DNA from: a virus
Length of the DNA: 64,000 nt
Reading direction: 5' to 3' (one strand)
IMG/VR virus record: IMGVR_UViG_3300031976_000907
Location: 7,351 to 71,350 of that record
The notes under the pieces are model-generated. The model did no database searches, was not told the DNA's origin, and worked only from the letters and a program-made list of their open reading frames with translations. The position numbers and the translations under genes were made by a program. Below are positions 1 through 63,542 of this stretch, one piece after another (positions within the stretch are counted from its first letter, which is position 1; every line of letters begins with the position of its first letter).

Positions 1-51
1 TGCTATGGTTTTACTCTTACTGGCATAATTCCACACCTTTCTGCGATGAAG

Positions 52-81
52 GACGTCAAAAGACGTCAAGTCGGACGTCAA
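52..81 (+). repeat. Three direct GACGTCAA repeats; candidate integrase arm-type binding sites (att arm)
   Basis: GACGTCAA at 52-59, 62-69 and 74-81, immediately upstream of the integrase RBS (GGAG 83-86). Confidence 0.7.
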
Positions 82-91
82 TGGAGTGGTT

Positions 92-1072: not shown

Positions 1073-1329
1073 TGTTTTACAGCCCACTTAATAACGTCCT
1101 GAGCACGCCACAGAGCGTTGCTACGCTGTCCTCTACCGTTTGGTAGGCGTATGGCTTGGGGAAAGCTTTCTTGCTTGCTAGTGTGGTCTCTGAACGTTGT
1201 AGGTGATTGGCGTAAGTAAAGTGCGCAATCCTTACCGTTCCAAAGAGTTGTTTCATCTGGATGGCTCACCGCCAACCGCTGCGCTATGGCGTTCGCCAAT
1301 AGATCATAATCAATTGATAAATCAGTCAT
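1069..1329 (-). CDS. Excisionase / AlpA-like recombination directionality factor
   Basis: Small winged-HTH with FPQAIRL...LWRAQDVIKW signature; convergent with int, stop codons share TTAA 1069-1072; ATG 1329 with GGAG RBS. Confidence 0.75.
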   Translation of the reverse strand: MTDLSIDYDLLANAIAQRLAVSHPDETTLWNGKDCALYLRQSPTTFRDHTSKQESFPQAIRLPNGRGQRSNALWRAQDVIKWAVKH

Positions 1330-1370
1330 TGTGTTCTCCAAAGGTAGTGCCTCTGTGCGAGGCACAAGCC

Positions 1371-3947: not shown

Positions 3948-4364
3948 TTATGCGCACTTATTAGCAGGTTTGCACATAGGGATCTCTTCAAGGAGAGCCG
4001 CTTGTGCTTTGAGCGCTTTGTTTTCAGTTTTAAGGTTTGCAATCTCTTCTTGCAGGATTTCAGTAATCACTGCCTGGTTAAGAGATTGCTGAGTTACTGG
4101 ACGTTGAAAGTTCTCAGGGATCGCTTCTAGATCTTCTAGAAGACGGTTGAGATACACGTTATCGTCGTCAGTTCCTTCAAGCAGGGAGGTGATGCGTTCA
4201 AGATAGATGCGAGTTACTTCAAACACTTCAATGGCGTTCTCAAAAGAACGTAAGACTTCTGGAGAGTAGTCTGAACCAATGTCAGTGTGTGAGCGGTAGA
4301 TCTCGCCATCAAGTTCTTCACCTAGTAGCTGAAGTTTGAGACGGATATCAGTTAGTGTGTCCAT
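3948..4364 (-). CDS. Hypothetical protein with C-terminal coiled coil
   Basis: ORF in the minus-strand operon; likely start MDTLTD at 4364. Confidence 0.6.
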   Translation of the reverse strand: MDTLTDIRLKLQLLGEELDGEIYRSHTDIGSDYSPEVLRSFENAIEVFEVTRIYLERITSLLEGTDDDNVYLNRLLEDLEAIPENFQRPVTQQSLNQAVITEILQEEIANLKTENKALKAQAALLEEIPMCKPANKCA

Positions 4365-4848
4365 GATTAAATTCCGCTTTACGTTCGATGTACTCGTCAA
4401 TGGGAACCAAGACAAACCGAGGTTGTTGACGGTACGTTATTAAAAGTTTTTCATCTTGCGTGGCATCTTCTGTGATCTCTCTGCCAAGCTCGCTGGTTGA
4501 GACTTCACGAATGTTCAGTCCAAGGCGAGGTACAGAGCGAATGTTGTGCTCACGCATTTTGAGATAAACAATGCAGGTACTAAGACCCAGCACGTTTGCA
4601 ATTTCTTCTGCGCTGTAACAGTTCTCCCAGAGAACGGTAATGTCGCTGATTAATTTGCTATTTCTCATTTCTGATCCTGATGGAAAGCCCCAACGTGCCC
4701 TACGACACCAGATTGTGTCTTTGGTTACGCCAAAGTGGTGGGCAATTTTAGAGTCCGACCAGCCTTGCTTGATCATGCTAAGCACGTCGTCACGGTCGGT
4801 ATCGAAAGGGGGTTTGTATAAAACCTTGTTCGGGCTTGTACGGGACAT
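4348..4848 (-). CDS. Tandem-HTH protein with C-terminal Phd/YefM-like domain
   Basis: Two HTHs (SDSKIAHHFGVTKDTI; SAEEIANVLGLSTCIV) then EVSTSEL...LLITYRQQPRFVLVPIDEY. Confidence 0.6.
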   Translation of the reverse strand: MSRTSPNKVLYKPPFDTDRDDVLSMIKQGWSDSKIAHHFGVTKDTIWCRRARWGFPSGSEMRNSKLISDITVLWENCYSAEEIANVLGLSTCIVYLKMREHNIRSVPRLGLNIREVSTSELGREITEDATQDEKLLITYRQQPRFVLVPIDEYIERKAEFNHGHTN

Positions 4849-6333: not shown

Positions 6334-6402
6334 ATAAAACCTTTTGCAAACCATAACTAAAATAAAATAAATTGCAATTTGTTTATGTTTTCTGCAACTA
6401 AT

Positions 6403-6426: not shown

Positions 6427-6434
6427 AATTATTA

Positions 6435-14314: not shown

Positions 14315-14776
14315 TTATGGTCGTTTATTCATTTTGGGCTTTTCGGTAAACCAGTAAGTGTTACCTTGGCTGTCGAAGCAAGCCCAAGTAGCATCTGGCG
14401 GTGCGTCATCCCAATTGGGTGCATAAGGTTTAACTCTTGCATTATCGATCCACTCAAGAATCTCATCGAGGGATTTGCGCCCTAAATTAGGGATTTCAGC
14501 AAAGTCATAGCCAGCATTAAATGCGTTAAGTACTTCCTCTTTTGTGTGGAAGTCATAACTACGTAAAGCGTTTGCAGCACGTGTAGATAGTTCAGCTTGT
14601 AATGGAGTTTGCGGGTAGCGTGACGGGCGTAAGTGGGATCGAACTAACTCTCCTACCCGTTGTGCTGTGATGCCAAAATGTGCGCCTATTTGCCCATAGG
14701 TAAACCCATTTTGATACATTTCAGCCATAGCTTCTCTACGTGCTAAGCTTTTTTGTTTAATCTCAAGCGCCTTCAT
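14315..14776 (-). CDS. Sigma-region-4-like HTH plus RNAP alpha-CTD-like domain protein
   Basis: TYGQIGAHFGITAQRVGEL; ELSTRAANAL...IPNLGRKSLDEI resembles alpha-CTD ELTVRSANCL...TPNLGKKSLTEI. Confidence 0.75.
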   Translation of the reverse strand: MKALEIKQKSLARREAMAEMYQNGFTYGQIGAHFGITAQRVGELVRSHLRPSRYPQTPLQAELSTRAANALRSYDFHTKEEVLNAFNAGYDFAEIPNLGRKSLDEILEWIDNARVKPYAPNWDDAPPDATWACFDSQGNTYWFTEKPKMNKRP

Positions 14777-14843: not shown

Positions 14844-16040
14844 TTAACTCAATGCGTAATTGCTGTTAGCAATATACGTGGAGAGATTTGGTTCAAATTT
14901 GTTGATATGAACGTGGTAGCCACGTACTTGTGAGAGCAGATCAGAGAGTAATTCACTGTCAGCCAGTTCACAGAACATGTCACGGTACGTTTCACGCAGT
15001 CTTTGCATATTGTTAGGGTGGCATTTGAATTCATCATGTACACACACAACAGGGAAGGGCTTATGCGTTAGACACTTTTCAATCATTGCTTTTAAGCGAA
15101 TGAGCGTACTAAAGCTGTAAGCCACTAGGTTGGTATGATTGATCTCATCGACAAGCTTTAAGCTTACGAATTCAGACGTATCGACAACTGCAATCTCAAT
15201 ATCTTGTAGATACTCATCCAGTAGCTCGTGAACACGAGTCAATTGGGCTGGATTGTAGTTACAGCGACGATTCATCTCACGCACTAACATACCGTCAATT
15301 GAGTGGACAATGTTAGCGGCGATCGACAAGCCTGATTCAGTGCCTACGTTCTCATAGAAGCGGTGAGTGAACGTCATGTGATCGAGTTCATCGATCTCTA
15401 CTTTCACATCGACTGCGTCCATTACCTTACATTTGGCTTCAAAGCCATCAGGTAGAACCCATTCATGGCTCAATTCGAACGGTTGCCAAGATTCAAGCAG
15501 TTTATCCATGACATCGACTGCACCAGGAGCGATAGTCGCTTGTGCCTGGTAGAAGCATTCCAGTTCTACAGTATCTTCACCAAAGATCTCTTTTGGCTTC
15601 GCATTAGAGCCATAGAAGTGAGTCATTAGAGCTTGTTTAACGTCTTTACGTGCTGGCGCTACAGATACGCCATGCTGTTTAAGCAAGTCGTTCATTACAG
15701 CAGTGCAATGCGTGTAGATATCAGCACGAGTGGTAGGATCAATCAGTCCTGTATTGGTACATGTCTCTGGATCACCAATGAGCGTACCCATTATTTGTAA
15801 TCCGCTACTGCAAGCGTCCAGACCCACCATGTGTCCGGTTGGTTGTCCATTTTGAGCAGCACGAAGTGCCATCACACCGGCTAGAAACAGTGGAGCGTCA
15901 TCTGCTTTATCAATGAGTCCTTCTAGCTCATCAATGTGGGTATCAACCCAAGCAATACGGGCTTCAAACAGCTCTTTGTCCATACCAAAGGCGTTCGCAA
16001 TATCAATCTTGATGTATTCGAATCCAGTAAATGTTTGCAT
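14844..16040 (-). CDS. N4-like RNA polymerase II subunit 2 (gp16-like)
   Basis: MQTFTGFEYIKIDIAN start; LDACSSGLQ, RKDVKQALMTHFYG, ANIVHSIDG, VHDEF. Confidence 0.95.
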   Translation of the reverse strand: MQTFTGFEYIKIDIANAFGMDKELFEARIAWVDTHIDELEGLIDKADDAPLFLAGVMALRAAQNGQPTGHMVGLDACSSGLQIMGTLIGDPETCTNTGLIDPTTRADIYTHCTAVMNDLLKQHGVSVAPARKDVKQALMTHFYGSNAKPKEIFGEDTVELECFYQAQATIAPGAVDVMDKLLESWQPFELSHEWVLPDGFEAKCKVMDAVDVKVEIDELDHMTFTHRFYENVGTESGLSIAANIVHSIDGMLVREMNRRCNYNPAQLTRVHELLDEYLQDIEIAVVDTSEFVSLKLVDEINHTNLVAYSFSTLIRLKAMIEKCLTHKPFPVVCVHDEFKCHPNNMQRLRETYRDMFCELADSELLSDLLSQVRGYHVHINKFEPNLSTYIANSNYALS

Positions 16041-16054
16041 AGGTTTCTCCTCAC

Positions 16055-16074
16055 AAAAGGGCACGGAGGTGCCC
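16055..16074 (-). terminator. Terminator-like hairpin upstream of RNAP2
   Basis: GGGCAC/GTGCCC stem with short U-tract. Confidence 0.5.
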
Positions 16075-16668: not shown

Positions 16669-17109
16669 CTACTTAATGGCAGTAAGGATTTTGTCGAGCT
16701 TGCCTGACTTTTCTAGCTCAGCCAGAGAAGACATTGCAGCTTCGGCACGCTCTAATAGAGCAACCATGCGTTCAAGACGCTCAAAGTTGGCAGTCTTTTC
16801 AATGCGCTGCACTCCATCTGAGATCCTTTGATAGGCGTCACGGACTTTGCCTGATACTTGCTTTACAGATTCAGTAATGGCTTTTTCTGATTGAGTGACG
16901 TCATCTGTACGTTGACGAATCACTTCTAAGTATTTATCTAGTTGCTCTGTTGCGTTGTTTAGATCATTGCTCATTTTTTTCACCCGTTTGGTTAAGTAGT
17001 TGCCAGCTTTGTCATCGTTTAGCATCGAAACGATAGCTTTAGTCACTGTTGTTTCTGCGAACAACGGTTCACCGCGTTCGATCTTCTCTATGCCGTTGTA
17101 TTCGTACAT
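16669..17109 (-). CDS. Coiled-coil hypothetical protein
   Basis: 146 aa helical heptads; GGAGGGTGT-ATG start. Confidence 0.6.
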   Translation of the reverse strand: MYEYNGIEKIERGEPLFAETTVTKAIVSMLNDDKAGNYLTKRVKKMSNDLNNATEQLDKYLEVIRQRTDDVTQSEKAITESVKQVSGKVRDAYQRISDGVQRIEKTANFERLERMVALLERAEAAMSSLAELEKSGKLDKILTAIK

Positions 17110-18002
17110 ACACCCTCCACTAGCTCTGGTTCAGCAAACTGAATCATCGCTTTTCTAAATGAATTACCTTGAGTGCTCACGTGATAGCCCTGAGCGTAGG
17201 TGCGACCACGTTTATCAACGCGGTGCGTTAGGTAAAACTCGTTACCTTGTTGGATTAGCTCCTTGTAGACTCGGTATGAGTCATTCACAAACTTCATCCA
17301 CTGCTCACGTTGCTTACCATCTTTGAAATCACGCTTAGGCGTCTCTGAAAGGGTAGTCAGCAACTCAACATTCAAGGTAAGCGGTACTTGATTGAACTTA
17401 TTGATACTGTCGAGGCAAATTTCACCTGTATGGAAGTTACCTTTACCCAGAATCATGCTTTCACGCTTGGTGAGATAGCCTGAGTCGTAATTACTGCGCA
17501 CTTTGTTAGGTGGACAGATCATTGGAGGAAGGTATTGAGCCTGCATCATGTAACGACGCAGTTCTTCAGACAGATCGTAGTTCGATACAATGTAAAGCGA
17601 GGCAAACTTATCCTCTTTGATAATGTCCCAGACATCTGCTTCACACAGTACAGCAAGTAGTTCACCCGCCATCTTTGCACCGTCACCTTTATCCGTCATA
17701 CCAATGACAGAGGCGACTTCACCTACAACAGAGGTGTAAAGCTCAGGTACTCTCTTTGGCACAACAACGTAGAAGATGTCATACACTAGCTCCAGCAAAT
17801 CTGTCTTACGCTCAACAAACTCAGCTATGCGCTGGTTCTTTGAGTCGTAATAGCTTTGGCTTACGTAATCTTGGATTAGATTGACGCACTCCAATGCCGA
17901 AGCGTGAAGCTCTGGGCACTCTGATATCTCCTGAATCAGTTTCTTCTTCACAGCACGTTTGCTGTACATGTTCTCGATCTCGCGTTGGTTCTCTATGTGC
18001 AT
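17088..18002 (-). CDS. N4-like RNA polymerase II subunit 1 (gp15-like)
   Basis: YLPPMICPP, SGYLT, THRVDKRGRTYAQGYHVSTQG (DxRGRxY). Confidence 0.93.
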   Translation of the reverse strand: MHIENQREIENMYSKRAVKKKLIQEISECPELHASALECVNLIQDYVSQSYYDSKNQRIAEFVERKTDLLELVYDIFYVVVPKRVPELYTSVVGEVASVIGMTDKGDGAKMAGELLAVLCEADVWDIIKEDKFASLYIVSNYDLSEELRRYMMQAQYLPPMICPPNKVRSNYDSGYLTKRESMILGKGNFHTGEICLDSINKFNQVPLTLNVELLTTLSETPKRDFKDGKQREQWMKFVNDSYRVYKELIQQGNEFYLTHRVDKRGRTYAQGYHVSTQGNSFRKAMIQFAEPELVEGVCTNTTA

Positions 18003-18444: not shown

Positions 18445-18465
18445 CCACACCTGCGCGACAGCGCA
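18445..18465 (-). promoter_or_regulatory. Candidate vRNAP hairpin promoter P3 (template is the + strand)
   Basis: CC ACACC TGCGC GACA GCGCA; same motif at 19122 and 19549. Confidence 0.7.
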
Positions 18466-18601
18466 TTGCTTATAATTAAATCGAATTGATTGATCGAGAA
18501 AGGATCACTAAACTGCGGCGTTAGCTGCACCACCAGTGTTATGTTTAGTGAGTAGTGTTGTGTATGGTAGAACCCCTGTGTTCTACCGTATGTATATAGT
18601 T

Positions 18602-18621
18602 AAAAAGCTCCCGAAGGAGCT
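18602..18621 (-). terminator. Terminator of early unit 2
   Basis: AGCTCC-TTCG-GGAGCTTTTT on the minus strand. Confidence 0.75.
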
Positions 18622-18635
18622 AATTAATATATCGG

Positions 18636-19121: not shown

Positions 19122-19141
19122 CCTCACCTGAGCGACAGCTC
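19122..19141 (-). promoter_or_regulatory. Candidate vRNAP hairpin promoter P2
   Basis: CC TCACCT GAGC GACA GCTC. Confidence 0.7.
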
Positions 19142-19192
19142 TCTTACTTATTAGAATGATCTATCTCTGATTGGTTGTGTTGTGTGAGCTTT

Positions 19193-19212
19193 AAACCCAC
19201 CGAAGGTGGGTT
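19193..19212 (-). terminator. Terminator of early unit 1
   Basis: AACCCACC/GGTGGGTT stem at the stop of the 19211-19303 peptide; short U-tract. Confidence 0.6.
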
Positions 19213-19303
19213 AGATGTAGCCTAGCGTTGCTGCTACTACAAGGGTAATGCCTGTGATGAGAGTGAGGACGTATGGTACGTCCTCCAGGAGAAGCTTAGT
19301 CAT
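19211..19303 (-). CDS. 30-aa single-TM early peptide (not in ORF track)
   Basis: MTKLLLEDVPYVLTLITGITLVVAATLGYI; AAGGAG RBS; overlaps the upstream stop. Confidence 0.55.
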   Translation of the reverse strand: MTKLLLEDVPYVLTLITGITLVVAATLGYI

Positions 19304-19548: not shown

Positions 19549-19567
19549 CCATACCTAAGCGACAGCT
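19549..19567 (-). promoter_or_regulatory. Candidate vRNAP hairpin promoter P1
   Basis: CC ATACCT AAGC GACA GCT (shortest stem of the three). Confidence 0.62.
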
Positions 19568-30380: not shown

Positions 30381-30964
30381 TGGTGAAGTTTATATTCCCA
30401 ACGCCTATCTACACAGACAGTCTCTCGGAACAAGAGTTAAGTAATGTCAGTACAGATATTCAAACTTATTTGGATTCAGGCGAAGGATTTAAACCATCAC
30501 TATTTGAAGATGGTGGGGATCACTTATTAAGTGATCCAACCTTCTCTGAAAATGTCATAGCGCAGTACAAAATGCAGCATCTAAGTGATGTGATTATGCA
30601 GCACACTGCAAGGTATCTGCGGCATTTAAACCCCCATTTTCTAGCGTACAACTCGCTGAATATTAGTACGTCTTGGATTACTTATACGCCAGCAAACAAA
30701 CACACGTTACCGCACGCACATAACCCACATGAAATATCGGGCGTGTATTACCACAAAGTTCCTGTTGGTTCGGGTGATTTGGCTCTACATTCACCAAACA
30801 ACTGTCACACAACAACGCCCTCAATAGGCGGTGGTGATCGATACATAGTTAAAGCGGAGCAAGGAACACTTGTTCTATTCCCCAGTTGGCTTGTCCATCA
30901 CGTCAAAACCAATATGAGTGATTCAGAACGAATATCTGTCTCATTTAATTTAGATATTGCGTAA
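30380..30964 (+). CDS. Putative 2OG-Fe(II) oxygenase (TIGR02466-like)
   Basis: FPTPIY, PHAH...ISGVYY, LFPSWLVHHV, RISVSFN. Confidence 0.88.
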   Translation: MVKFIFPTPIYTDSLSEQELSNVSTDIQTYLDSGEGFKPSLFEDGGDHLLSDPTFSENVIAQYKMQHLSDVIMQHTARYLRHLNPHFLAYNSLNISTSWITYTPANKHTLPHAHNPHEISGVYYHKVPVGSGDLALHSPNNCHTTTPSIGGGDRYIVKAEQGTLVLFPSWLVHHVKTNMSDSERISVSFNLDIA

Positions 30965-53370: not shown

Positions 53371-53393
53371 TTAAAAATTAAATAGTTCATAAT

Positions 53394-53419
53394 AGCCCGT
53401 ATATTTTACGGGCTTTTTT
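53394..53419 (+). terminator. Terminator between gp51-like and vRNAP
   Basis: AGCCCGTA/TACGGGCT stem plus TTTTT. Confidence 0.7.
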
Positions 53420-53442
53420 ATTTATTCGAGGATTAATATTAA

Positions 53443-56400
53443 ATGAGCAGCAACAATCCTTATTCCCCTTTAATAACTCCCCCTACAAAAGAAGACGCAG
53501 TTAATAATGCATCCGTTGAAAAACAGAATATATTAACGCAGCGCGTTAACCCTTTATCTCAACAAGAATTAATCCAGCAAAACGCTGACTCTATTCGTGC
53601 CCGTCAATATGAACAAGCGGTACGTGAATCAGATTCTTGGGTTACTGATGAAGGTTTGGATAGTTTTGGGGGAACGGTTGCTAACTCAGTTGCTGCTGCT
53701 GTTGAAATAGGGGTTCCTCGACTATTAAGCCAAACACTTGGTTTACTGCCTAATGCTGTCAGCGCCATGCAAATTCGTGGCGTGCCTGATGCTGCTATTG
53801 AAAGCTACAACAAGCAGATGGGCATTGATGGTATGACTCGTGAGCTTGATCGTCAGCGCCGTTTGGCAATGGCAGACAGCATCATGGGCACACTGTCAGC
53901 AGATGATTACCAGAACCGTATGGCATTCTTGGATCAGAAAGCTGCAGAGATCCCTACACTGCGTCCTGAAGAGAATGCTCTACTTGATCAAGTACTTCAG
54001 CAAGATGAAGGCCCATCGATTGATGAGTTCTCTCAAGAAGACACTTCAGCGCCAGCAGGTAACCCTGTTACGTATCGCTCTAAATTGAACGCTGCTCTTC
54101 GTTCAAGCAATGCGGCAGCTGAGATTGATAAGTTCTTTATGGAAGATACGATTGTATCTGGCATCTTCAACGACTCAAGCCGTAAAGATTTAATCTCTGA
54201 AATAGAGACTGCATGGAATATTAACAGTACTGGCTTTGATAAAGCTGATGCTGCTGAAGCCAAAGGTAACTACGGAGAAGCTACTTGGGAAGGTGTTAAA
54301 ACCTTAGCAGGTTTAATTGCAGACGGTGGTTCAGCTATTGCAAGCAATCCTGGTGCATCTGTTGAATACGCAATGGAGAATGCTCCACGGTTATTAACGG
54401 GCTTGTTTGGTAAGAGTGCGCTGGCGCTAACGAATACTGGTTACGCGATGGATACTTACCGTCGTGGTCTTGAAGCTTACCAATCTGAAAATAACGGCAA
54501 CCTTCCTGATAAAGATACTCAGGGCAAAATGCTGATGTCAGCGCTTGCAGCTGGCGGTGTTGAAATGGTGGCAGACTCGGCGCTATTGAAAGCAGCGGGT
54601 CTAGGTAAAGCAGCACCTAATCCAACACAAACATTGAAAGGCGCGTTACTAAGCAGGGCTACAACACCGGTTACATCAGGTATTGGTGAAGGTGTTACTG
54701 AAGGTATTCAGACTGGCTTAGAACAACTTGCTGAAGGTAAGTCACTGGACGAAATTGATGGTGGTGAAGTCTATGCTGGTGCAGTTATTGGTACAGCTGC
54801 AGGTGGTGCTACAACAGTTCCAGGATCTGCATTAGGCGCAGTTGGTGACACAGTTCGTAAGACAGCGATAGAGCCGCTACAAAAGCGTGCAATTAAAGCT
54901 GCAGCTGAACAGCAAGTCGAAGATGCTAAGAACGCTGAGATCGATGAAGCCATTAATACAGCAATTGGTACTAAAGTACCAAGTCCAGTTATTAAATCTA
55001 CTTCTGAAGGCGAAAATCAGTCTGATTTTGCAATATCAGATGTGCTCTCTAGAATTGCCGCCCGTCATAAATCTGTCACACAGCCTTCGGAAGAGGGTAG
55101 TGAGCCAAATCTAGAGGAGGGTAAAAAACTTGTTACAGCAGCACGTCAAACGATGGTGGCTGCACGTAACAAAGCAGAGCAAGTCTCTGATCAAATTGAT
55201 GCCCTCGATAAGCAGTACGAAGGTACTGAACTACCTGCCGACGTTGCCGAACAACGTGAATCGCTTATTAGGGAAGAAGAAAGCCTTCAGGCTGAAGTCT
55301 CTGATAACGCGCAAGCCTTTAAAGATCTTGTTGCTGCACAGAACAGCCTGACCAGCACAGAAGAAGATGTGAATACTGTAGTCAACGCAACGGAGCAGAC
55401 TCAGCAGTTCAAGATCGCAAAACAACAAATAATTGACAAGACACTGAGTTCTATGGAGTCGGTTACGGTTGAGCAAGTAAGGAATGTACTTGATAAAGCC
55501 TCAACACTTCTATCAGAAGAAGAGCGTAACCAGTTAGAAAACTATGCAGAAACAAAGGAGCGATTAGACGCTGCTAAATCAGTTGATGAAGTAAACCAAC
55601 TAATCATTGAAGGCGGAACAGATACAAACGGGCGAGTGTACAAAGGTGCTGAAGAGTACCGAGATGAAATTACACTGGCAGTCCAGACAGGCGATACGCG
55701 CAAAGCGCAGATGAGCCTGATCAAACTAAGAGAATTTACTGAACGACATCGTGCGAAAGCCAATGCGTTTAAGAAAGCGTTTGCCCCGTATGCAAGAGCA
55801 CGTACTCAAGCAAGCAAGCTAGCCCCGACCAAGGAAGAGCTTGATGCAAAACAATACGTAGAAGAGAACTTCCAAACGCAATCTGGCAAGGCTTACGATG
55901 TAGGATTTAATTTTGGATCAATTGCACAAGCTACTGTGTACGAAGCGTCAGCCTTAGAAGCAACGTTACGTGAAGCAGAAGCATTGGTTCAAACTAAGAA
56001 AATAGATGATGTAACAACTGAAACAGAGACAGCCGCTGATCCATTAGTGACTGAGGATACTTCAACGACACCCGACGCCAATCAAGTAGTCGAAGAAGCA
56101 TCCCAGTCTCCTCAGCAAACTGAGGAACTTATTCCAGAAGAACAAGCGGCTGAAACTTTACAGGAACCGACAAGTAGTCAACAAGAGACTAATTCTCAAG
56201 AAGGTACTGTAGATGAAAATATTAGTCAGACCAGTAATGAAAGTGCTGTTAGTGGGTTAGTACGTCCAATTTCTGACGAAAGCATTGAACTATCTGCTGA
56301 TCAAAAAGTTGAACAAATCAACATCATAGATCGCAGTTTTAAAGTCAAAAATATTGTAGGCAGTGTGCTACATGGTATGCAGAACTTAGCTGAAACATTA

Positions 56401-59400
56401 GCTAAGTCTCCCCAAGAAGCACTTAAGTACCTTGAAATAGATTCACTTACAACCAAGCAAGAAGCGGCAGTTGCGCATTTTGCGGCATTTGTACCACAAG
56501 TGAGTGAGGCATTAAGTTCTATATTTGAGCCTAGCAAGTTCACTGTACGTAACTACATGAACAATCTTGTAAACGAAGATGGTTCATTACGTGACGGTGT
56601 CACTGAAGCGATTGCAGCAACGGTGTACAACTGGGCAGCTACTCGTTCAACGGATACGTACTACAACGACAAGCAAGCTATTGCAAATATGTTGAGCCTA
56701 CCGGAAAGCAAAGTTACTGAAGCAATGATTGATTTGCTGGGTGACAAAGGCGTTTCTCGTGCTGAACTTGTTCGACAGTTAGGTGCTGAAGTTCGTAAGA
56801 CTCTAGGACTAGATGTTAAAGATGGCAGCGTTCCGCTGAATCATAAAGATAATCTGGAACAGGCACTGGGCACTTACGCTTACGGTGTGTTGTTTGAGAT
56901 GGGTATGATTGAAGAATCAGCTGTTCCTCGTATTTGGGACGTTGGTTCTAACAAGCGCAAAGTACTTCCGATGACACGTACTAAAGCCAAAATGGTAGAT
57001 GGCGTGTTGACTGAAACAGAATCTGTTAAAGAGATTGTTGATGTTAACCGTGGTACGTCTAGCATCATCGGCAAGATGTTTAAATCTGAGATGGTTCGTA
57101 CTGAGCCACGCCTGGTTGCTCCAGAAGATCAGCCTGGTCGTCAGAAAGGAACATTTAAGTCTGTAACTGCAGCTGCTCGTCGTATCCTGACACGTCATGC
57201 AAATCGTGCACATCAGATTGCTTCTGAAGTAGACGGCGTATTCAACTTATTTAACCGCGAACAGCAAGAAGCTCTTGTCGGTGTAGTTGATTCTGATGGC
57301 TTAGAAAATACGCACAAAGCTAATCGCAAAGGTGTGGAAGGTAAGAACGCTTCACTACGTCGTGAGTTAGACGATTACAGTGAGTGGCGTGGACGCATGG
57401 AAGAAGAAGGCAGTGTTGATACTGAATTCTATCTAGAACATGAGATCTGGCGTAACCAGCGTATTGGTATGTCCACTGGCTTAATTAACCCGCAGGCTTC
57501 TAAAGTACAGCGTGGCTTGGTTCGTATGTCGAACTGGGTAAAAACGATCAAGCTGGATAACAAGAAGCACATGGATATGTTCAAACTTGGCTTTGGTCAA
57601 GGTATGGGCATAGACGTGGATAAGCTTACTATCCCTGAAAGTATTGCTGAGGTAAGCCAAGTTCTAGAAAGTGAAACGGTACAGAAAGCACTGGCTGCAC
57701 TGAACCTTCACTTGAATGGTGGTGAGCTAACCGTTGAGATGCGTGATGACATTGTTGCAGCGGTACGTATGGGTGGTGAGGGAACTCATTCACTCAATGC
57801 GTTGGTCAACTATGCACGCTACCAAGACGCAGTCGGCAAAGGTATGTCTGGATTTAAATCCGATATGGTGCTGGAAGTCGATGGTATTACCAACGGTGTC
57901 ATGATTGGTGTGATGCAATTTATGCCAGGATCTGAAAAAGCCAAAGAACTACTGGCGGCAGGCGGCATCTTTACAGATGGTACAACTTCATACGGTGAGT
58001 GGCGCTCTAAAGGTAACATCGATAACTATGAGAATCTTGCTACAGCTTGGCTTGAAAAGATGCGTGAGCGCTTTGTAGCCACTGAAGATCTTCAAGAGAA
58101 GAAGCAGTTTGCTGTTATTGCGAATATCCTGCAGATCACTAAGAACGGTAAACCTAACCGTAAACTGGCTAAAGCACCTCTAATGACGAACGTCTACGGT
58201 GCTAGTGCTGATTCAATCAAAGCATTGGTAGGTGATGAGTTTATTGATGCAATCTACAAGCGCATCGAAGACATCGTTAACGATCCAGAGCTTTGGGAAG
58301 ATGAGCGTCGTGATCAGTTAATGGCTTTACAGAATGAGCTAAACCAGCTGACATCAGAGCCACTACTTAACTTTGGTAAGTTTGCAGATACACGTTCAGC
58401 ATTGGATGCACTGGTTAATCCAGTAGCTGAGGCTGAGATTCGTGACATGCTGAGCAACAGCTTTGGTGAAGAGTTGCTTAATGCAGTTGAAGAGAAATTT
58501 GGTGACTTCATGGAGCGCCGTTCAAAATTCAACTCGCTAATCGAAAAACAGAACAAAGTCTTTACCCAGCTGTTTGATAAATTAGTTGAGATCAGAACTC
58601 AAGAACTGATTGAGCAAGGTGTTATCTCAGGTAAGTACGAAACATTGCCACAGAACGAGATCGATCTAATCATCGATAAACTGATGCCGATCATGCCAAG
58701 CTTGGATACGGTATACGCTCAAAACGAATACCAAAACATGCAGCTGACTTCGATGGAGAAAGGCTCAGCAAGCAGTGATCCAAAAGCCAAAGTAGAAGTC
58801 ACACTGGCAAACGGCAAGAAGATTACGACTTACGCACGTAAACGTGGCTTTAGAGAGAAGCTAGGTGTGGGTTCTGCAATCTTAGGTATTCACTCAATGG
58901 ATGCGGCTGTAGCGCTATCAACAATGCGTGAACTCGATATTTTGAACGTCCACGATGGTTTCTCTACATCTGTTGTGGATGCACAAAAGCTAGCTAAGTT
59001 GTTGAATAACCGTTTTGTTGAAGCGATGAAGCGTTACTCTATTGTTGAAGCAGGTAACGCCAGTGCAATACGTGCTGAAGAAGCCATAATGGAAATAATG
59101 ACTGAGTACGATTTAACTACTCGTGACATTCCTGCTTCTAAAGATTTTTACTCACAAGAATTTACTGAGCTGTCTCAAGTAACTCAAACAGAGAAAGCTA
59201 AGCTTCTTGATGAGATTACGTACGTAACTCAGTACAACTTGGAAGAGTCTGGTCAGACAAACGAAGCGCCGAAGGCAGCGGATGTGACGGCTGACAGAAG
59301 TGAATGGGGTTCTGTCTACACAGGTAAGAAGTCTGCTCGTAAACGTCCAATGACAGCGGCAGAAGATTACCTACGTAACAACGACAACCCAACAGTAGGT

Positions 59401-62400
59401 GGTTTGGTTGATTTGGTGATGCCATTCATTGATAAGCGTTCAGCGATTGCACGTGTACTAGGTACACTGGGTGCAGCACTGGACACTAATTTAAACTTTG
59501 CCCTGGTTGAGCCAAACACTAACCTGGATAGCGCGTCAGAAGAAGTACGTAAAGCGATTAAAGATTCACACGCGCTGTATGACGGTAACACGCATACGGT
59601 GTACTTAAAGAGCAGTGCATTCTCCCATCATGGGATGAACGCTGAAACTATTGCACACGAATTGATGCACGCACTGGCTTCTCGCTACATTCAAGATAAC
59701 CCTGACGCAGAAGCGGTACAGGAGCTTGAAGAACTGCGCCAGCAAGTTCTGAAAGATCTGGACTCTAAGCCAAACCTATTTGGTGAAAAACCACCACAGA
59801 TCAGCAACGTTGATGAGTTGTTGGCTTGGGGTATGACCAATGAAACGTTCCAAAGCTACCTGAAGTCTCTACGTGTTAAACCACGTGAAGGTAAAGTAGT
59901 AACTGGCTTTAAACGTTTTGTGAATCTTCTACAGAAGATCATGTTTGGTAAGGAAGTTGAAGGTGCAACTAACACAGCAATGTACCAGTTGATTGAAAGC
60001 GGTGCTCAAATTATGAGCGATGCGCGTCAGTACAAACCTGCTGAGTTGGATTACAGCGTAGCACCACAAAAAGCCCAGACAATGTCGTCTATTCAAATGC
60101 TTGAGCAACTTGGATTACGCGATACTTTAAACACCCGTACACAAGCGCATAAATCACATCTGGCTAAGATTCAAGCAAGCGTGCTAGACATTTTGGCTGG
60201 CCCATTCCATAGCACACTGCGTGATGTGGAAGACAGCTTAGGTGATGACGTTGATCAGATGATTCGACACTTACAAAATAAGACCACACCGTTTGTGTCT
60301 GGCTTAGTAGGTAAGTTTAATCTATCGGCACAAGAAGCGTATGTGAGTGAGCAAGTTGAAGCGGTACTAGGTGAACTACTTAATACAGATAGTCGTGAAC
60401 GCAAACAGCTTACACGCTTATGGCAGTTGGCTAAAAACAGTGAAGAAGTTCGTAATGCGTTAACAGAAGAGCAGTGGAATTACATTTTTAATCCACGCAC
60501 AACATCTGTGATTACGTCTTATAACTCGCTGGCAGGTAAGTCGGTAACTCGTCAACAGTCTGACTATTTGCAACGCTTTGCGGCGCTTTCGCTAACGCAC
60601 GCACCGCTACGCGATGCTATGTCAGGTATGAACGTAAATGCTCAGAGCTTACCTGTTAAAGGTAAGTCATTTGGTAAACAGATCGAAGCAATCTGGCATA
60701 ACCTACTTGAGTATGTTCGTAAGCTTATGGATCGTGCGTCTAATGTCGATGGCCCTGCGCAAGAACGTATTGATCGCATCTTGCAAAACCTTGCTGTTAT
60801 TGAGCATCGTAAACGTCAACGCATCGAAGCTGACATTAAGAAAGCAGAAGCTGCTCAAGATAACCCGCTAAACAAAGCGATCCATTCAGCGACTGCTACT
60901 ATCAAACGTAAGATGCGCAACACCCGTAAAGGTACGATCAGTCGTGCAGCAGACGTTGCTTCTCGTATGACGGAAGAGGGTGTGGCTGACGGGTTTGCTG
61001 ATGTAATGCAAAAAGTCCGTAACCGTATTACCTCTAAGCGTAATGGTTTGGTAATGAGTCTGGTTCAAGAACTGCGTGGTGAGACGGAAGGTAACTCCCG
61101 TTTCATGAAACTACTGCGCTGGTCTAACCGTGATATCGACCAGGCACGCCGCCAGGTTAAAGAGGCAATGACAAGCTTGGTACTGGAAGGCTTTGAACAA
61201 GAGCTGACCAAAGAAGAATCAAGTGCACTGACTAAAGCCATCATTATGACGGACATGGTTAGCTTATTTGATAACCCTAAAGATATCTCGAAAGCGATGG
61301 CTATGCTGGAAGACCCATCAGCACGTAGCGCAATGATTGAAGAGCTTGAGTCACAACTAGCACAAACCGAATACGGCATGTTCTACGTGAACCAAGCTGA
61401 TGCATTGGGCATGTACATGGCACAGGGTCGAGCTACCAACACGATGTTGATTAAGAACGCTCACGGTATTGCCCGTTTGTTTGGTCGCCCTGAAACAGCA
61501 AGCGATGCTGACATTAAAATGGCTGAGCCATTGATTGACCAATTGGCAACTTTGTACGCAATCAATTACACCAACGCAGATCAGCGTAATGCAGCAATTA
61601 ACATGCTGAATAAAGATCGAGCAGGTGTATACCATGCAATGTTCTTACACAAGCAACTTAAGAAAGAAGCACTTGAGAGCGCATTTGATGGTGATCCTGC
61701 ATTGATGGCAAAAGGTTACACCTACGAAATCACCAACCCACATAAAACAGTGGCATGGGCAGAGAAGGGTAGTGATGAAGCTGCCTTGCTAGAAGCTCAA
61801 GGTTATGTGTTGGATCACGAAACAGTATTTGCATACGATCGTCGTCAACCTAACCCAGTTGGTGTGTACGTATTGCACGATGGCGGTACAGCTCGTTACA
61901 TGGCATCAATCATGTCGAACACAAACCTTTCGGCAAAAGGTTCGTCATTAGCTAATGTATTGGCCCAAGGTGACGGTAAGATCTACCACACTGTCAAAGA
62001 ACAGCAAGATGGTATTGCTGCACAACGTGCTAACGATTCACGTCTGTTACTGAGTCAACGTGTGAAGCCAAATCCTGATGTGGTTTATGGTATTCCGGTG
62101 TTTAACCCTGACGGTAAAGCAGTCGATTTCCGATTGGAGATGCTACAGCACTACCGCGAACAAACACTTGAAAAAGATTACCGTCTAGAGCATGTACTTG
62201 GTGGTGAAGCAGGTAACCTTGTTGATAAGCAATCTTCTGAAGCGGTAAACAGTGACACGATTGTGGCATTGGCAGAAGCTTACAAAGCAGATAGCGACAA
62301 GGGTGAGTACATTACTATCTCGAAAAATCCTGGTGATGCGCGTCTTAAAGAGATTTGGGACATGCTGCCTGAAGCAGCTAAGCAAAGGGCGCAGGATGAA

Positions 62401-63507
62401 TTCGGTGCACCAATGATTAAAGTGCGTCGTGAGATGTTGGATCTGGTATTTGGTTACCGTAAATTCTCAGTATTGGATTCGTTAAAAGTTCCTGCAAATG
62501 AACGTACCCGCATGCAACGCATGATGGCTACGGCATTGGAATTGGCGATGAAGTATTTTGGGATTAAAGCTGCCACGAGGATTCAGCAAGCTGAGCAAGT
62601 GTGGCAAGAGATTATCCGAGCAGTTAAAGATATTTTGGTTGTGAAAAACCTATTCACACTGGTCGGTAACATTGTGAGCAACATCGCTTTACTATCCCTA
62701 AGTGGTGTACCTATAAGGGACATCATTCGGAACAAAGCGATTGCTTGGAAGGGCGTACAAGATTACCAGCGTGATAAAAACCGTCTATTTAAGTTGGAGC
62801 AAACAATTGCTGCTCAACCATTAACGGCTGAACAGTTAGATGAGTTCCAAGCTGAGATTGCGATTATTAACCAGCGCATGGCGATAAATCCTGTAGCAGA
62901 GTTGGTCGAGGCTGGGATATTCCAGACCATCGTAGAAGATATTGATACTGCGGATGATCCATACAGCTACAAGTCAAAGCTTGTAACAAAAATGGATGAG
63001 TACACTAAGCATGTACCGCAAGGTATTAAAGAAGCGGCGAAGGTAATGACCATGAGTCATGACACTTCTGTGTACAAGTTCATGAACCAATCAACTCAGA
63101 TCTCTGACTTTGCAGCGCGATACGTACAGTACAAGTACTTCACTGAGCGAGCTAAGAATCCGTTGACTAAAGAAGAAGCTCTGAAGCGCGTGGTTGAGAA
63201 CTTTGTAAACTACGACATCCCAACGCACAAAGGTGTGCAATATCTCAATGATATGGGTGTGGTCATGTTCACCAAGTACTACATGCGCATACAGAAACCT
63301 TTGGTTCGTATGGTGGGTGAGAACCCAGCAAGATTCATGATGATGCTAATGGCACAGAGCTTCTTAGGATTCTCTGCACCGTCTGACTCAAGTTTCTTGA
63401 CGAACAATCCACTCAGTCGGTTTGTAAACCCATTGAATACGATTGTTGGAGCGCCAGACGAGATCATGCTTATTAACGGTGTACTGCATGGTACAGGCAT
63501 TAAGTAA
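53443..63507 (+). CDS. Virion-encapsidated RNA polymerase (N4 gp50-like)
   Basis: 3354 aa, no Cys seen; motif A EVDGITNG, motif B RKLAKAPLMTNVYG, motif C NVHDG; zincin-like AHELMH. Confidence 0.96.
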   Translation: MSSNNPYSPLITPPTKEDAVNNASVEKQNILTQRVNPLSQQELIQQNADSIRARQYEQAVRESDSWVTDEGLDSFGGTVANSVAAAVEIGVPRLLSQTLGLLPNAVSAMQIRGVPDAAIESYNKQMGIDGMTRELDRQRRLAMADSIMGTLSADDYQNRMAFLDQKAAEIPTLRPEENALLDQVLQQDEGPSIDEFSQEDTSAPAGNPVTYRSKLNAALRSSNAAAEIDKFFMEDTIVSGIFNDSSRKDLISEIETAWNINSTGFDKADAAEAKGNYGEATWEGVKTLAGLIADGGSAIASNPGASVEYAMENAPRLLTGLFGKSALALTNTGYAMDTYRRGLEAYQSENNGNLPDKDTQGKMLMSALAAGGVEMVADSALLKAAGLGKAAPNPTQTLKGALLSRATTPVTSGIGEGVTEGIQTGLEQLAEGKSLDEIDGGEVYAGAVIGTAAGGATTVPGSALGAVGDTVRKTAIEPLQKRAIKAAAEQQVEDAKNAEIDEAINTAIGTKVPSPVIKSTSEGENQSDFAISDVLSRIAARHKSVTQPSEEGSEPNLEEGKKLVTAARQTMVAARNKAEQVSDQIDALDKQYEGTELPADVAEQRESLIREEESLQAEVSDNAQAFKDLVAAQNSLTSTEEDVNTVVNATEQTQQFKIAKQQIIDKTLSSMESVTVEQVRNVLDKASTLLSEEERNQLENYAETKERLDAAKSVDEVNQLIIEGGTDTNGRVYKGAEEYRDEITLAVQTGDTRKAQMSLIKLREFTERHRAKANAFKKAFAPYARARTQASKLAPTKEELDAKQYVEENFQTQSGKAYDVGFNFGSIAQATVYEASALEATLREAEALVQTKKIDDVTTETETAADPLVTEDTSTTPDANQVVEEASQSPQQTEELIPEEQAAETLQEPTSSQQETNSQEGTVDENISQTSNESAVSGLVRPISDESIELSADQKVEQINIIDRSFKVKNIVGSVLHGMQNLAETLAKSPQEALKYLEIDSLTTKQEAAVAHFAAFVPQVSEALSSIFEPSKFTVRNYMNNLVNEDGSLRDGVTEAIAATVYNWAATRSTDTYYNDKQAIANMLSLPESKVTEAMIDLLGDKGVSRAELVRQLGAEVRKTLGLDVKDGSVPLNHKDNLEQALGTYAYGVLFEMGMIEESAVPRIWDVGSNKRKVLPMTRTKAKMVDGVLTETESVKEIVDVNRGTSSIIGKMFKSEMVRTEPRLVAPEDQPGRQKGTFKSVTAAARRILTRHANRAHQIASEVDGVFNLFNREQQEALVGVVDSDGLENTHKANRKGVEGKNASLRRELDDYSEWRGRMEEEGSVDTEFYLEHEIWRNQRIGMSTGLINPQASKVQRGLVRMSNWVKTIKLDNKKHMDMFKLGFGQGMGIDVDKLTIPESIAEVSQVLESETVQKALAALNLHLNGGELTVEMRDDIVAAVRMGGEGTHSLNALVNYARYQDAVGKGMSGFKSDMVLEVDGITNGVMIGVMQFMPGSEKAKELLAAGGIFTDGTTSYGEWRSKGNIDNYENLATAWLEKMRERFVATEDLQEKKQFAVIANILQITKNGKPNRKLAKAPLMTNVYGASADSIKALVGDEFIDAIYKRIEDIVNDPELWEDERRDQLMALQNELNQLTSEPLLNFGKFADTRSALDALVNPVAEAEIRDMLSNSFGEELLNAVEEKFGDFMERRSKFNSLIEKQNKVFTQLFDKLVEIRTQELIEQGVISGKYETLPQNEIDLIIDKLMPIMPSLDTVYAQNEYQNMQLTSMEKGSASSDPKAKVEVTLANGKKITTYARKRGFREKLGVGSAILGIHSMDAAVALSTMRELDILNVHDGFSTSVVDAQKLAKLLNNRFVEAMKRYSIVEAGNASAIRAEEAIMEIMTEYDLTTRDIPASKDFYSQEFTELSQVTQTEKAKLLDEITYVTQYNLEESGQTNEAPKAADVTADRSEWGSVYTGKKSARKRPMTAAEDYLRNNDNPTVGGLVDLVMPFIDKRSAIARVLGTLGAALDTNLNFALVEPNTNLDSASEEVRKAIKDSHALYDGNTHTVYLKSSAFSHHGMNAETIAHELMHALASRYIQDNPDAEAVQELEELRQQVLKDLDSKPNLFGEKPPQISNVDELLAWGMTNETFQSYLKSLRVKPREGKVVTGFKRFVNLLQKIMFGKEVEGATNTAMYQLIESGAQIMSDARQYKPAELDYSVAPQKAQTMSSIQMLEQLGLRDTLNTRTQAHKSHLAKIQASVLDILAGPFHSTLRDVEDSLGDDVDQMIRHLQNKTTPFVSGLVGKFNLSAQEAYVSEQVEAVLGELLNTDSRERKQLTRLWQLAKNSEEVRNALTEEQWNYIFNPRTTSVITSYNSLAGKSVTRQQSDYLQRFAALSLTHAPLRDAMSGMNVNAQSLPVKGKSFGKQIEAIWHNLLEYVRKLMDRASNVDGPAQERIDRILQNLAVIEHRKRQRIEADIKKAEAAQDNPLNKAIHSATATIKRKMRNTRKGTISRAADVASRMTEEGVADGFADVMQKVRNRITSKRNGLVMSLVQELRGETEGNSRFMKLLRWSNRDIDQARRQVKEAMTSLVLEGFEQELTKEESSALTKAIIMTDMVSLFDNPKDISKAMAMLEDPSARSAMIEELESQLAQTEYGMFYVNQADALGMYMAQGRATNTMLIKNAHGIARLFGRPETASDADIKMAEPLIDQLATLYAINYTNADQRNAAINMLNKDRAGVYHAMFLHKQLKKEALESAFDGDPALMAKGYTYEITNPHKTVAWAEKGSDEAALLEAQGYVLDHETVFAYDRRQPNPVGVYVLHDGGTARYMASIMSNTNLSAKGSSLANVLAQGDGKIYHTVKEQQDGIAAQRANDSRLLLSQRVKPNPDVVYGIPVFNPDGKAVDFRLEMLQHYREQTLEKDYRLEHVLGGEAGNLVDKQSSEAVNSDTIVALAEAYKADSDKGEYITISKNPGDARLKEIWDMLPEAAKQRAQDEFGAPMIKVRREMLDLVFGYRKFSVLDSLKVPANERTRMQRMMATALELAMKYFGIKAATRIQQAEQVWQEIIRAVKDILVVKNLFTLVGNIVSNIALLSLSGVPIRDIIRNKAIAWKGVQDYQRDKNRLFKLEQTIAAQPLTAEQLDEFQAEIAIINQRMAINPVAELVEAGIFQTIVEDIDTADDPYSYKSKLVTKMDEYTKHVPQGIKEAAKVMTMSHDTSVYKFMNQSTQISDFAARYVQYKYFTERAKNPLTKEEALKRVVENFVNYDIPTHKGVQYLNDMGVVMFTKYYMRIQKPLVRMVGENPARFMMMLMAQSFLGFSAPSDSSFLTNNPLSRFVNPLNTIVGAPDEIMLINGVLHGTGIK

Positions 63508-63513: not shown

Positions 63514-63542
63514 TAAAAAGCAGGGGGTGAAGACGCCCCCTG
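63514..63542 (-). terminator. Terminator between convergent genes
   Basis: CAGGGGG/CCCCCTG stem with an A-tract on its 5' side. Confidence 0.6.

Follow-up and report, generated by a model that had tools for sequence, protein, structure and literature searches.

A putative lysogeny module and an ordinary virion RNA polymerase locus in the genome of an N4-like phage

How could an N4-like phage remain silent in a lysogen if it carries no conventional repressor? The phages of this group have long been regarded as strictly lytic, an assumption on which their use in phage therapy rests. The question is raised by a 64,000-nucleotide stretch (hereafter the window) of the viral record IMGVR_UViG_3300031976_000907, in which the segment at 53371–63507 is occupied by the gene for a giant virion RNA polymerase (vRNAP). 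A preliminary description of the window, made from its letters alone, reported hairpin promoters ahead of the early genes, a terminator in front of the vRNAP gene and no CI-like repressor, and proposed that an integrated copy is silent by default and that the supply of vRNAP acts as the switch. Our analysis confirms these observations in part and lends partial support to their interpretation. The reading that we favour, and to which we give an even chance of being correct, is that the phage is capable of a temperate life by means of a compact lysogeny module, consisting of an integrase, a phage attachment site (attP) and a small putative DNA-binding protein termed P0001, that default silence is supplemented by local control through P0001, and that the vRNAP locus itself is an ordinary one.

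The source record is a 71,350-bp viral contig of an N4-like phage (Schitoviridae), of which the window covers record positions 7351–71350 (G000:C1), so that window position n corresponds to record position n + 7350. The contig ends carry an identical 91-bp terminal repeat and its completeness is estimated at 100%. The record is a free, complete N4-like phage genome and not an integrated copy. PHROG profile scans of 83 open reading frames (ORFs; 61 in the window and 22 further ones) recovered a full N4-like gene set, comprising vRNAP, both RNAPII subunits, DNA polymerase, helicase, gp24/gp25-like proteins, terminase, portal and major capsid protein (MCP); Pfam models were run on 51 ORFs and NCBIfam models on 21. 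The MCP shares 66–68% identity with its counterparts in Vibrio phage VBP47 and Pseudomonas phage LUZ7. The gene layout is a circular permutation of that of N4 and keeps its order of portal, MCP and terminase. The early and middle genes point leftward, starting at ~19.7 kb, and the late genes rightward from 19.9 kb, with vRNAP the last of them. Across the contig junction, vRNAP converges on a minus-strand operon beyond the window (record 329–5912) that encodes RuvC, a single-stranded DNA-binding protein (SSB), Sak4, primase and exonuclease. The coordinates of individual features are collected in Table 1.

The lysogeny module is located in the replication-gene block and straddles the left edge of the window. 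Its tyrosine integrase looks like an intact, full-length recombinase, as judged from its translation, which contains the segments ETAMRLGE, TKNGSARSVPL, FHDTRHEA and VGHKD...RYY that we take to be the R-K-H-R-H-Y catalytic set. The protein is 61% identical to the integrase of a prophage in Marinobacterium litorale DSM 23545 (see below). Upstream of int lies a 662-bp intergenic region (record 6774–7435) with five direct repeats of GGACGTCAA, three exact and two with one mismatch, that flank a 21-nt attP core, AGTCCGGTCCGGGGCACCATT, at record 7248–7268. Three of the repeats, of the form [G/A]GACGTCAA, are found in the P' arm at window positions 51–59, 61–69 and 73–81, between the int promoter-like site and the int ATG, and the two remaining arm-type repeats are at record 7069 and 7194, outside the window. 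Seven one-mismatch matches to GGACGTCAA are scattered elsewhere in the genome. The 98-aa ORF that converges with int has a 46% identical counterpart in the corresponding position of the M. litorale prophage. The Pfam and NCBIfam ORF scans of the present genome gave no match to an Xis- or AlpA-type excisionase.

The attP core is identical at 21/21 positions to the 3' end of tRNA-Leu(TAA) of M. litorale DSM 23545. When one genome per species was searched (~186,000 species), the exact 21-mer was recovered from only six stretches, all labelled Oceanospirillaceae: four Marinobacterium records, one Neptunomonas and one Oceanospirillaceae metagenome-assembled genome (MAG). In five of these six tRNA-Leu stretches the locus retrieved is free of phage genes, which makes the five candidates for unoccupied attB sites. 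Marinobacterium/Neptunomonas is the likely host group, and the phage is probably able to integrate into a host tRNA gene. The lysogenic capacity that the preliminary description had taken for granted is well supported at the level of sequence, by the attP/tRNA identity and by two integrated relatives flanked by att repeats.

Integrated copies were sought in bacterial assemblies using the MCP and the integrase as probes. The MCP probe identified 18 N4-like loci, of which five are on contigs exceeding 100 kb; two of the 18, those of M. litorale and of a Neptuniibacter MAG, were examined in detail. Matches to the integrase probe were all at 54% identity or less. The M. litorale prophage is fully syntenic with the present phage and begins directly after a tRNA-Gly/Cys/Leu cluster. 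At its far end the tRNA-Leu end recurs as a 26-nt repeat (25/26 identity); a 1233-aa ORF situated past this repeat gave no phage match, and the 18 kb upstream of its integrase contain no other ORF matching the phage. It carries two insertion sequences, an IS3-family element in vRNAP (OrfA/OrfB-like frames at two contig ends) and an IS630/DDE_3-family element at the exonuclease/primase junction, and is therefore defective and split over three contigs. The Neptuniibacter prophage, also syntenic, has an intact vRNAP ORF of 3514 aa and a different, P4-type integrase accompanied by AlpA (2.7e-19). On both sides it is bordered by 16 nt repeated from the tRNA-Cys end, within the same kind of tRNA cluster. 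Likewise, a Burkholderiaceae MAG contig has N4-like genes behind an opening stretch of tRNA-Gly, tRNA-Cys and an integrase-like ORF. These assemblies indicate that integration occurs in this clade, with att-flanked copies known for relatives of the phage and not for the exact phage itself.

Several further observations concern these relatives. On the attR side of the Neptuniibacter prophage, the att repeat and the P0001 homologue are separated by a short tandem run of GTCTCGCT units (L039:~16450–16490) and a 98-aa GIY-YIG ORF (L039:16593–16889; Pfam 5e-9). A 914-kb contig of Xenophilus sp. contains an N4-like vRNAP as an ORF of only 1696 aa (G002:C6:75114–85159; profile positions 27–1597), with an integrase 37% identical to the present one ~4 kb away; this may be an isolate's N4-like prophage that has been truncated or rearranged. 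An apparently whole N4-like genome is found in Larsenimonas suaedae DSM 22428 on a 74,886-bp contig (G005:C6), with vRNAP running off both contig ends. No relative of the present integrase was detected on this contig by protein query, and it may be a lytic or episomal phage carried in the culture-collection strain.

On the other side of attP from int, P0001 is predicted to be a stand-alone winged-helix-like protein. Its gene has an AAGGA Shine-Dalgarno (SD) sequence and is preceded by two 17-bp palindromes, TCTAC(C/T)TCTAAGGTAGA (TCTAC-N7-GTAGA), situated 17–33 and 49–65 nt 5' of the ATG with their centres 32 bp apart. Exact copies are present nowhere else in the genome. Three copies with one mismatch were seen, where ~2 are expected by chance genome-wide; they are inside the vRNAP ORF, inside the gp25-like gene and in attP, and none is at a vRNAP or RNAPII promoter. 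A promoter-like TTAAAA-16-GATAAT on the plus strand overlaps operator 1. The one-mismatch copy in attP, TCCACGCGCAGTGTAGA at record 7078–7094, is inside the 662-bp att region directly after the first arm-type repeat, a placement that is suggestive only.

The AlphaFold model of P0001, built from a 71-sequence alignment, has a pLDDT of 90.6; a first model from four sequences (pLDDT 66) was discarded. Foldseek found no match in the PDB at E≤0.001 with either model. An exhaustive fold search with P0001 retrieved winged-helix DNA-binding domains almost exclusively, among them CodY-C (Z 5.9), ORC/Cdc6 (5.3–5.5), RepA WH1 (5.2), ArsR (5.1) and CooA (5.1), and, lower down, RepE (4.8) and MarR (4.6). 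All nine chains at Z≥5 are winged-helix domains or proteins containing one, as read from their titles. The P0001 profile matched a SlyA-like MarR protein among PDB sequences at E=0.07, and the MarR Pfam model matched one of 71 family members, at 0.0088. The family comprises at least 149 cluster representatives at E≤1e-3. P0001 itself matched nothing in 50,697 phage records by tblastn, and the family had 0 matches in 400 sampled genomes of the M. litorale class. We consider P0001 to be a candidate regulator with a modelled winged-helix-like fold, and not a conventional repressor.

The place next to attP appears to be occupied consistently in the integrase-bearing members of the clade. Neptuniibacter encodes a P0001 homologue (30% identical, E 9e-14) in the same att-proximal place despite its unrelated integrase. 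Upstream of it are two copies of TTAAC-N7-GTTAA, 31 bp apart, which have the half-site length, spacer and spacing of the P0001 palindromes and differ in their letters. The corresponding slot in M. litorale contains a 161-aa ORF preceded by two copies of ACACT-N2-AGTGT. This ORF was considered as a homologue of P0001 and rejected as such, no relationship being detectable (hhalign probability 2%, in the putative recognition helix only); the ESM Atlas places it near HTH_36, DnaD_N, MarR and P1-RepL clusters. Within each prophage, the exact palindromes are found only at the slot promoter, one further Neptuniibacter match being host DNA. The P0001 family was not detected by profile search in LUZ7 or the fetched Larsenimonas region, nor in N4, for which the check was limited to BLAST. 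Before the exonuclease, these two phages and the Larsenimonas contig, which is integrase-less, have other, unrelated small ORFs. A small att-proximal gene with paired palindromes is thus present in 3/3 integrase-bearing members and a detectable relative in 0/3 integrase-less ones, although these numbers are small. A search with the 4-sequence P0001 alignment retrieved a single viral contig. On the early side of another N4-like fragment, a distant P0001-family gene has a 26-bp, near-perfect palindrome, AAAACGTCAATATATATTGACGTTTT, ~50 nt upstream of it (L046:4909–4934; G406).

A conventional repressor was looked for throughout. No match to S24 or XRE was obtained in the PHROG, Pfam or NCBIfam scans, and neither Peptidase_S24 nor HTH_3 was detected at E≤1 when all six frames of the entire 71,350-bp record were searched, with control genomes positive in 12/14 and 14/14 cases. 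The 75 ORFs of the integrated M. litorale prophage likewise include no S24 or XRE repressor. By these profile searches, the whole genome is without a CI/LexA-type (HTH_3 + Peptidase_S24) repressor, as the preliminary description had concluded for the window. That description also cautioned that a repressor could lie outside the window and suggested annotating the remainder of the element. The 7.35 kb that it had not seen does contain P0001 with its operator-like palindromes, and no conventional repressor; the evidence against its view is thus of a weak form, a regulator predicted from sequence and candidate in status.

Two window ORFs match Pfam DNA-binding or polymerase-related domains, a 166-aa HTH_23-like protein and a 153-aa protein with similarity to the carboxy-terminal domain of the RNA polymerase alpha subunit (alpha-CTD). 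No LexA box (CTGT-N8-ACAG) was found in the genome. σ70-like promoters are scarce, with six in 52–64 kb versus 17.4 ± 4.0 expected and only two intergenic matches (≥9/12) genome-wide, one of them directly 5' of int. The poor σ70-like promoter content and the lack of a LexA box fit default silence.

According to the available portion of a published account of N4 (PMC4496689), early transcription depends on injected vRNAP, gyrase-driven hairpin extrusion and host SSB, and proceeds from three early promoters that share a conserved sequence and contain inverted repeats. Middle genes are transcribed by RNAPII, late genes depend on phage SSB acting on host RNA polymerase (RNAP), and entry of the genome is completed only once the middle transcription machinery has been made. 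The premise that early transcription needs vRNAP delivered from the capsid agrees with this account. Early promoter-like elements were recognised in the present genome by the 14-nt motif GCTGTCGCnnAGGT, which occurs in exactly three copies in 71 kb, all on the minus strand and each 30–50 nt 5' of the SD sequence and ATG of a small early ORF; five other matches have two mismatches each and are located elsewhere. The motif forms a 3–5 bp inverted repeat around a 4-nt TGTC loop (DNA ΔG -1.0, -3.0 and -5.9). The three copies fit N4 hairpin-type early promoters with short stems, and their use by vRNAP is only predicted; to this extent the hairpin promoters of the preliminary description are borne out. 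The motif is not found with two or fewer mismatches in the early regions of either prophage, whose own motifs were not derived.

The terminator in front of vRNAP had been offered as a clue to lysogeny. The hairpin has an 8-bp stem with five GC pairs and a 5-nt loop, followed by TTTTTT; its fold (ΔG -13.5 kcal/mol, z -5.4) was equalled by none of 200 shuffled sequences. A GC-rich stem-loop with a T run is what characterizes an intrinsic (Rho-independent) terminator, and we predict that it acts as one. It is situated in the 72-bp gap between a 445-aa ORF, ending at 53370, and the vRNAP ATG. As the ATG follows the stem by only 28 nt, no separate promoter is possible downstream of the terminator, and a vRNAP promoter of its own at this place was rejected. 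The sequence CATAAT directly 5' of the stem makes a start inside the hairpin conceivable; it has no supporting -35 element, and the promoter scan made no call there.

Comparison with related phages changes the meaning of this terminator. Lytic N4 carries AAAAGCCCTTCGGGGCTTTTTT in its 100-bp gp51–gp50 gap, which is the same junction, and both integrated relatives have an equivalent hairpin before vRNAP. At the corresponding junction, VBP47 shows only a weak hairpin lacking a T run, and the two genes abut in LUZ7. Since the terminator is common to strictly lytic N4, it is uninformative about lysogeny; the preliminary description was right about its presence and not about its significance. We conclude that the terminator is an ancestral N4-type feature and that the segment singled out in the preliminary description holds an ordinary N4-like vRNAP gene. 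Most likely, the terminator would hold vRNAP output far below that of the upstream capsid genes as a form of dosage control. vRNAP is needed in few copies, the products of the upstream genes in hundreds.

In both integrated prophages, 530–720 bp separate the terminator of the gp51-like gene from vRNAP (L035:9554–10164; L040:~17600–18100). This insert contains one or two small ORFs whose C-termini, as judged by eye, are SHOCT-like (GVFTEEEYNEK and GVLSESEYNQK) and which may be morons that the prophage expresses. The terminator–vRNAP gap of the present phage has no such insert of small SHOCT-like ORFs.

These elements can be combined into a model of how lysogeny might work in this phage. In a lysogen, the three-tier N4 cascade would be largely silent, as vRNAP, RNAPII and phage SSB would all be missing. 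P0001 would bind its own palindromes as a dimer and so control the region of its promoter, on one side of which lie attP and int; on the other side this region heads the exonuclease-primase-Sak4-SSB-RuvC operon. Loss of this control would be the most likely entry into induction: SSB would be made and would allow host RNAP to fire the late promoters, yielding vRNAP, which would in turn act on the early promoters. Host RNAP would transcribe int from the promoter of that gene, and Int would probably shut off its own synthesis through the P' arm sites. The idea of silence by default is a reasonable one for maintenance, as an integrated copy would have no self-starting tier. It is not the whole story, for two reasons. 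The int/attP region is ~19 kb from the early end and, if entry follows the N4 model, would arrive after the cascade has started, so that establishing lysogeny should need an active shut-off and not default silence alone; and a gene for a putative DNA-binding protein is found at attP in every lysogenic member examined.

A number of observations weigh against this model. P0001 itself has no Pfam, PHROG or NCBIfam match, its fold scores are modest (Z 5–6, values that may reflect a common arrangement), and its ESM Atlas neighbours suggest RepL-like replication initiators. The exact palindromes are not near the early promoters, the RNAPII genes or vRNAP, and as exact operators are found only at the P0001 promoter, P0001 cannot repress lytic promoters directly in the manner of CI, or in that proposed for the MarR-type repressors of T7-like prophages. 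No σ70-like promoter was found 5' of P0001 at the scan threshold. P0001 is divided from the downstream operon by a hairpin after its stop codon, which the scan classed as terminator-like and which is weakly significant (z -1.5, 19/200 shuffles as good). A distant member of the P0001 family (27% identical) is located on the early side of an N4-like fragment that shows no integrase, the fragment being 44% complete and covering the late half of the genome only. Finally, the sole isolate-borne prophage, that of M. litorale, is defective, and no inducible N4-like lysogen of the clade is documented here.

Other explanations share part of this evidence. The simplest is that there is no repressor at all, that the integrated copy is silent only for want of vRNAP, that induction comes solely from new vRNAP (made de novo, through a bypass by host RNAP or by a superinfecting relative), and that P0001 is irrelevant to lysogeny. 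The negative searches for S24/XRE repressors in the genome and in the M. litorale prophage, the missing LexA box, the few σ70-like promoters and the absence of P0001 operators from the lytic promoters are all compatible with it, as is the dependence of all three N4 tiers on phage factors in the accessible text of PMC4496689. We nevertheless think it unlikely. It leaves unexplained the presence of an att-proximal gene with palindromes in all three integrase-bearing members examined and the failure to find one in the three integrase-less ones, it provides no active stop for a cascade whose early and middle transcription would begin before int/attP enter, and the terminator that it invokes is shared with lytic N4 and leaves no room for a promoter behind it. 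A related proposal, which we call 'kick-start' lysogeny and consider improbable, holds that the integrated copy is inert by default, each tier needing a phage-made factor of which the first is normally supplied only by the virion, that P0001 gates only the promoter region of att/int and the SSB operon, and that host supercoiling, through hairpin extrusion, sets the choice between lysis and lysogeny upon infection. Cells low in energy may then fail to fire the cascade, with host RNAP making Int from the one good σ70-type promoter of the genome, and awakening may need vRNAP in trans (e.g. from a superinfecting relative) or leaky expression of SSB.

P0001 and its M. litorale slot-mate could instead be replication initiators or origin-binding proteins of the RepL/HTH_36/RepA kind that autoregulate at inverted repeats and serve phage or episomal replication. 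Their position at the head of the replication operon, the ESM Atlas neighbours (RepL, making up 32% of one cluster, and the HTH_36, DnaD_N and Phage_P1_RepL clusters) and the fold matches to RepA WH1, RepE and the winged-helix domains of ORC/Cdc6 point in this direction. RepA and RepE have two winged-helix domains, and the 152-aa P0001 has one. Moreover, neither P0001 (E≤5) nor any of 71 family members (E≤0.01) matches the RepL Pfam model, hhalign of the 71-sequence profile with P1 RepL gave a probability of 0.3% (a weak test, with a single-sequence template), no iteron-like arrangement of direct half-site repeats was apparent near P0001, and N4 and LUZ7 replicate without such a gene; on balance, this role is doubtful. 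It is also conceivable, and in our judgement quite improbable, that the integrase module is a recently acquired passenger or non-functional, the phage being lytic and its integrated relatives dead ends. The contig is indeed a free, complete genome, the M. litorale prophage is broken by IS3-family and IS630-family elements, the two clade members with unrelated integrases suggest repeated acquisition, and horizontal transfer of such genes is raised in the part of PMC10654107 available. This view is difficult to reconcile with the intact integrase ORF and its catalytic motifs, the five arm-type repeats around a 21-nt core identical to a host tRNA end, the five apparently empty matching tRNA-Leu sites in related bacteria, and the Neptuniibacter prophage with its intact 3514-aa vRNAP ORF and att repeats. 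We therefore retain the compact lysogeny module, with default silence and local control by P0001, as the preferred interpretation.

Table 1. Positions and properties of the features discussed (window coordinates unless marked as record or as belonging to the M. litorale assembly).
Feature	Position	Strand	Details
P0001, 152 aa, winged-helix-like, stand-alone (candidate regulator)	record 6315–6773	-	divergent from int across attP, just outside window
int promoter-like site	record 7350–7379, ~window 1–29		σ70-like TTGCTA-18-CATAAT (with TG)
P' arm of attP including int promoter-like site	1..85	+	three repeats [G/A]GACGTCAA
Tyrosine integrase, 328 aa	86..1072	+	phrog_1 7.2e-61; Pfam Phage_integrase 8.1e-21
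98-aa ORF convergent with int	1069..1365	-	phrog_4996 3e-12; no Pfam/NCBIfam match
Intrinsic-terminator-like hairpin, then TTTTTTATTTA	53394..53414	+	between gp51-like ORF and vRNAP
vRNAP, 3354 aa, single ORF	53443..63507	+	phrog_2206 E=0, 1659 bits, residues 107–3345
Early promoter-like motif Pa, GCTGTCGCTTAGGT	19553..19566	-	3-bp stem
Early promoter-like motif Pb, GCTGTCGCTCAGGT	19126..19139	-	4-bp stem
Early promoter-like motif Pc, GCTGTCGCGCAGGT	18449..18462	-	5-bp stem, 4-nt loop
Terminator-like hairpin, end of early unit	18592..18626	-	ΔG -11.3, z -5.1, 0/200 shuffles as good
Terminator-like hairpin, end of early unit	19183..19216	-	ΔG -11.9, z -3.75, 1/200 shuffles as good
N4-type RNAPII small subunit	17088..18002	-	phrog_2166 8.5e-96
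N4-type RNAPII large subunit	14844..16064	-	phrog_2051 1.3e-146
153-aa ORF with RNA polymerase alpha-CTD-like domain	14315..14776	-	adjoins RNAPII large subunit; RNA_pol_A_CTD 1.3e-8, 34.9 bits vs cut-off 23.8
HTH protein, 166 aa, middle-gene block	4348..4848	-	HTH_23 3.3e-5, 24.0 bits vs cut-off 24.6; phrog_323 1.5e-7
SSB, gp45-type	record 913–1725		phrog_743 5.9e-57
GC-rich hairpin between convergent vRNAP and RuvC/SSB operons	63521..63542	.	T run on - strand; ΔG -18.1, z -6.1
M. litorale insertion sequence elements	L035:13900–14275, L036:14996–15348, L036:1–307, L038:~15050–15385

Some features of the neighbouring genes are recorded here for completeness. The 166-aa HTH (helix-turn-helix) ORF has a homologue in M. 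litorale (39% identical) that itself matches HTH_38 at 7.7e-14. The 153-aa alpha-CTD-like ORF scores 1.7e-6 against the NCBIfam rpoA models, far under their cut-offs; such a phage copy could recruit host transcription factors or interfere with them. Between the genes of the RNAPII subunits are three consecutive ORFs of 63 aa (window 16093–16660, minus strand) with overlapping stop and start codons and no family matches. Two adjacent 2-oxoglutarate (2OG)-Fe(II) oxygenase genes (window 29799–30964, plus strand; phrog_61 1.3e-49 and phrog_81 1.9e-36) are found within the tail-fibre block.

The analysis defines a concrete, testable module, with a tRNA-Leu-targeting attP, arm-type repeats and paired operators next to a member of an uncharacterised winged-helix family, and it removes a misleading clue, the terminator before vRNAP being generic to N4. 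The proposal that vRNAP supply acts as a switch is a hypothesis that is only partly novel, and its support in the sequence is weaker than first stated; what remains of it is a testable question, together with a candidate regulator in the very place where one had been warned of. In the literature covered, supplementary tables apart, we came upon neither att sites nor regulators nor a mechanism of maintenance described for temperate N4-like phages.

Temperate-capable N4-like viruses and proviruses themselves are already known. The available portion of a 2023 study (PMC10654107, mSystems) describes 54 integrase-bearing N4-like genomes and 40 proviral regions, mostly from Moraxella, with marine habitats common. 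The present phage resembles these viruses in combining an N4-like genome with an integrase as 'lysogenic hallmark', and the contig may be among the 54 genomes. That portion of the study gives no att sites or regulator, and the word 'repressor' is absent from its text; relative to it, the present analysis adds the anatomy of attP, its target in tRNA-Leu, a likely group of hosts and a candidate regulator with putative operators, for a phage whose vRNAP locus is ordinary.

The likeness to N4, LUZ7 and VBP47 extends to the giant vRNAP, the two-subunit, gp15/gp16-like RNAPII, the gp45-type SSB and the N4 order of portal, MCP and terminase. Three putative hairpin-type early promoters at the terminase-proximal end and a terminator-like hairpin before vRNAP are further points of agreement with N4. 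The difference from N4 and LUZ7 lies between the exonuclease and ThyX blocks, where the present phage has the tyrosine integrase, attP and the putative winged-helix gene and N4 and LUZ7 have unrelated small ORFs. The early motif also differs in detail, with a 4-nt loop and stems of 3–5 bp here and a GC-rich heptamer flanked by inverted repeats in N4 as described in the accessible part of PMC4496689.

For temperate T7-like phages such as LUZ100, control of the supply of phage RNAP has been hypothesised to decide between lysis and lysogeny, and MarR sites have been proposed to flank the promoter of the RNAP gene, according to the sections of PMC10134795 available. The present phage would share with LUZ100 a lytic programme run on its own RNA polymerase and, if the model of P0001 is correct, a winged-helix-type regulator beside the integrase; it differs from what those sections describe in having no operator copy near vRNAP or RNAPII. 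P0001 itself has no MarR Pfam match, unlike the single family member noted above. The two systems differ further in that the N4-type vRNAP is delivered by the virion, whereas the T7-type RNAP is made after infection. In the integration-dependent immunity of mycobacteriophages, attP lies inside the repressor gene, which is truncated on integration. The present arrangement is similar in that attP adjoins a putative regulatory gene, so that integration would change what the promoter region of the regulator faces, and differs in that attP is intergenic.

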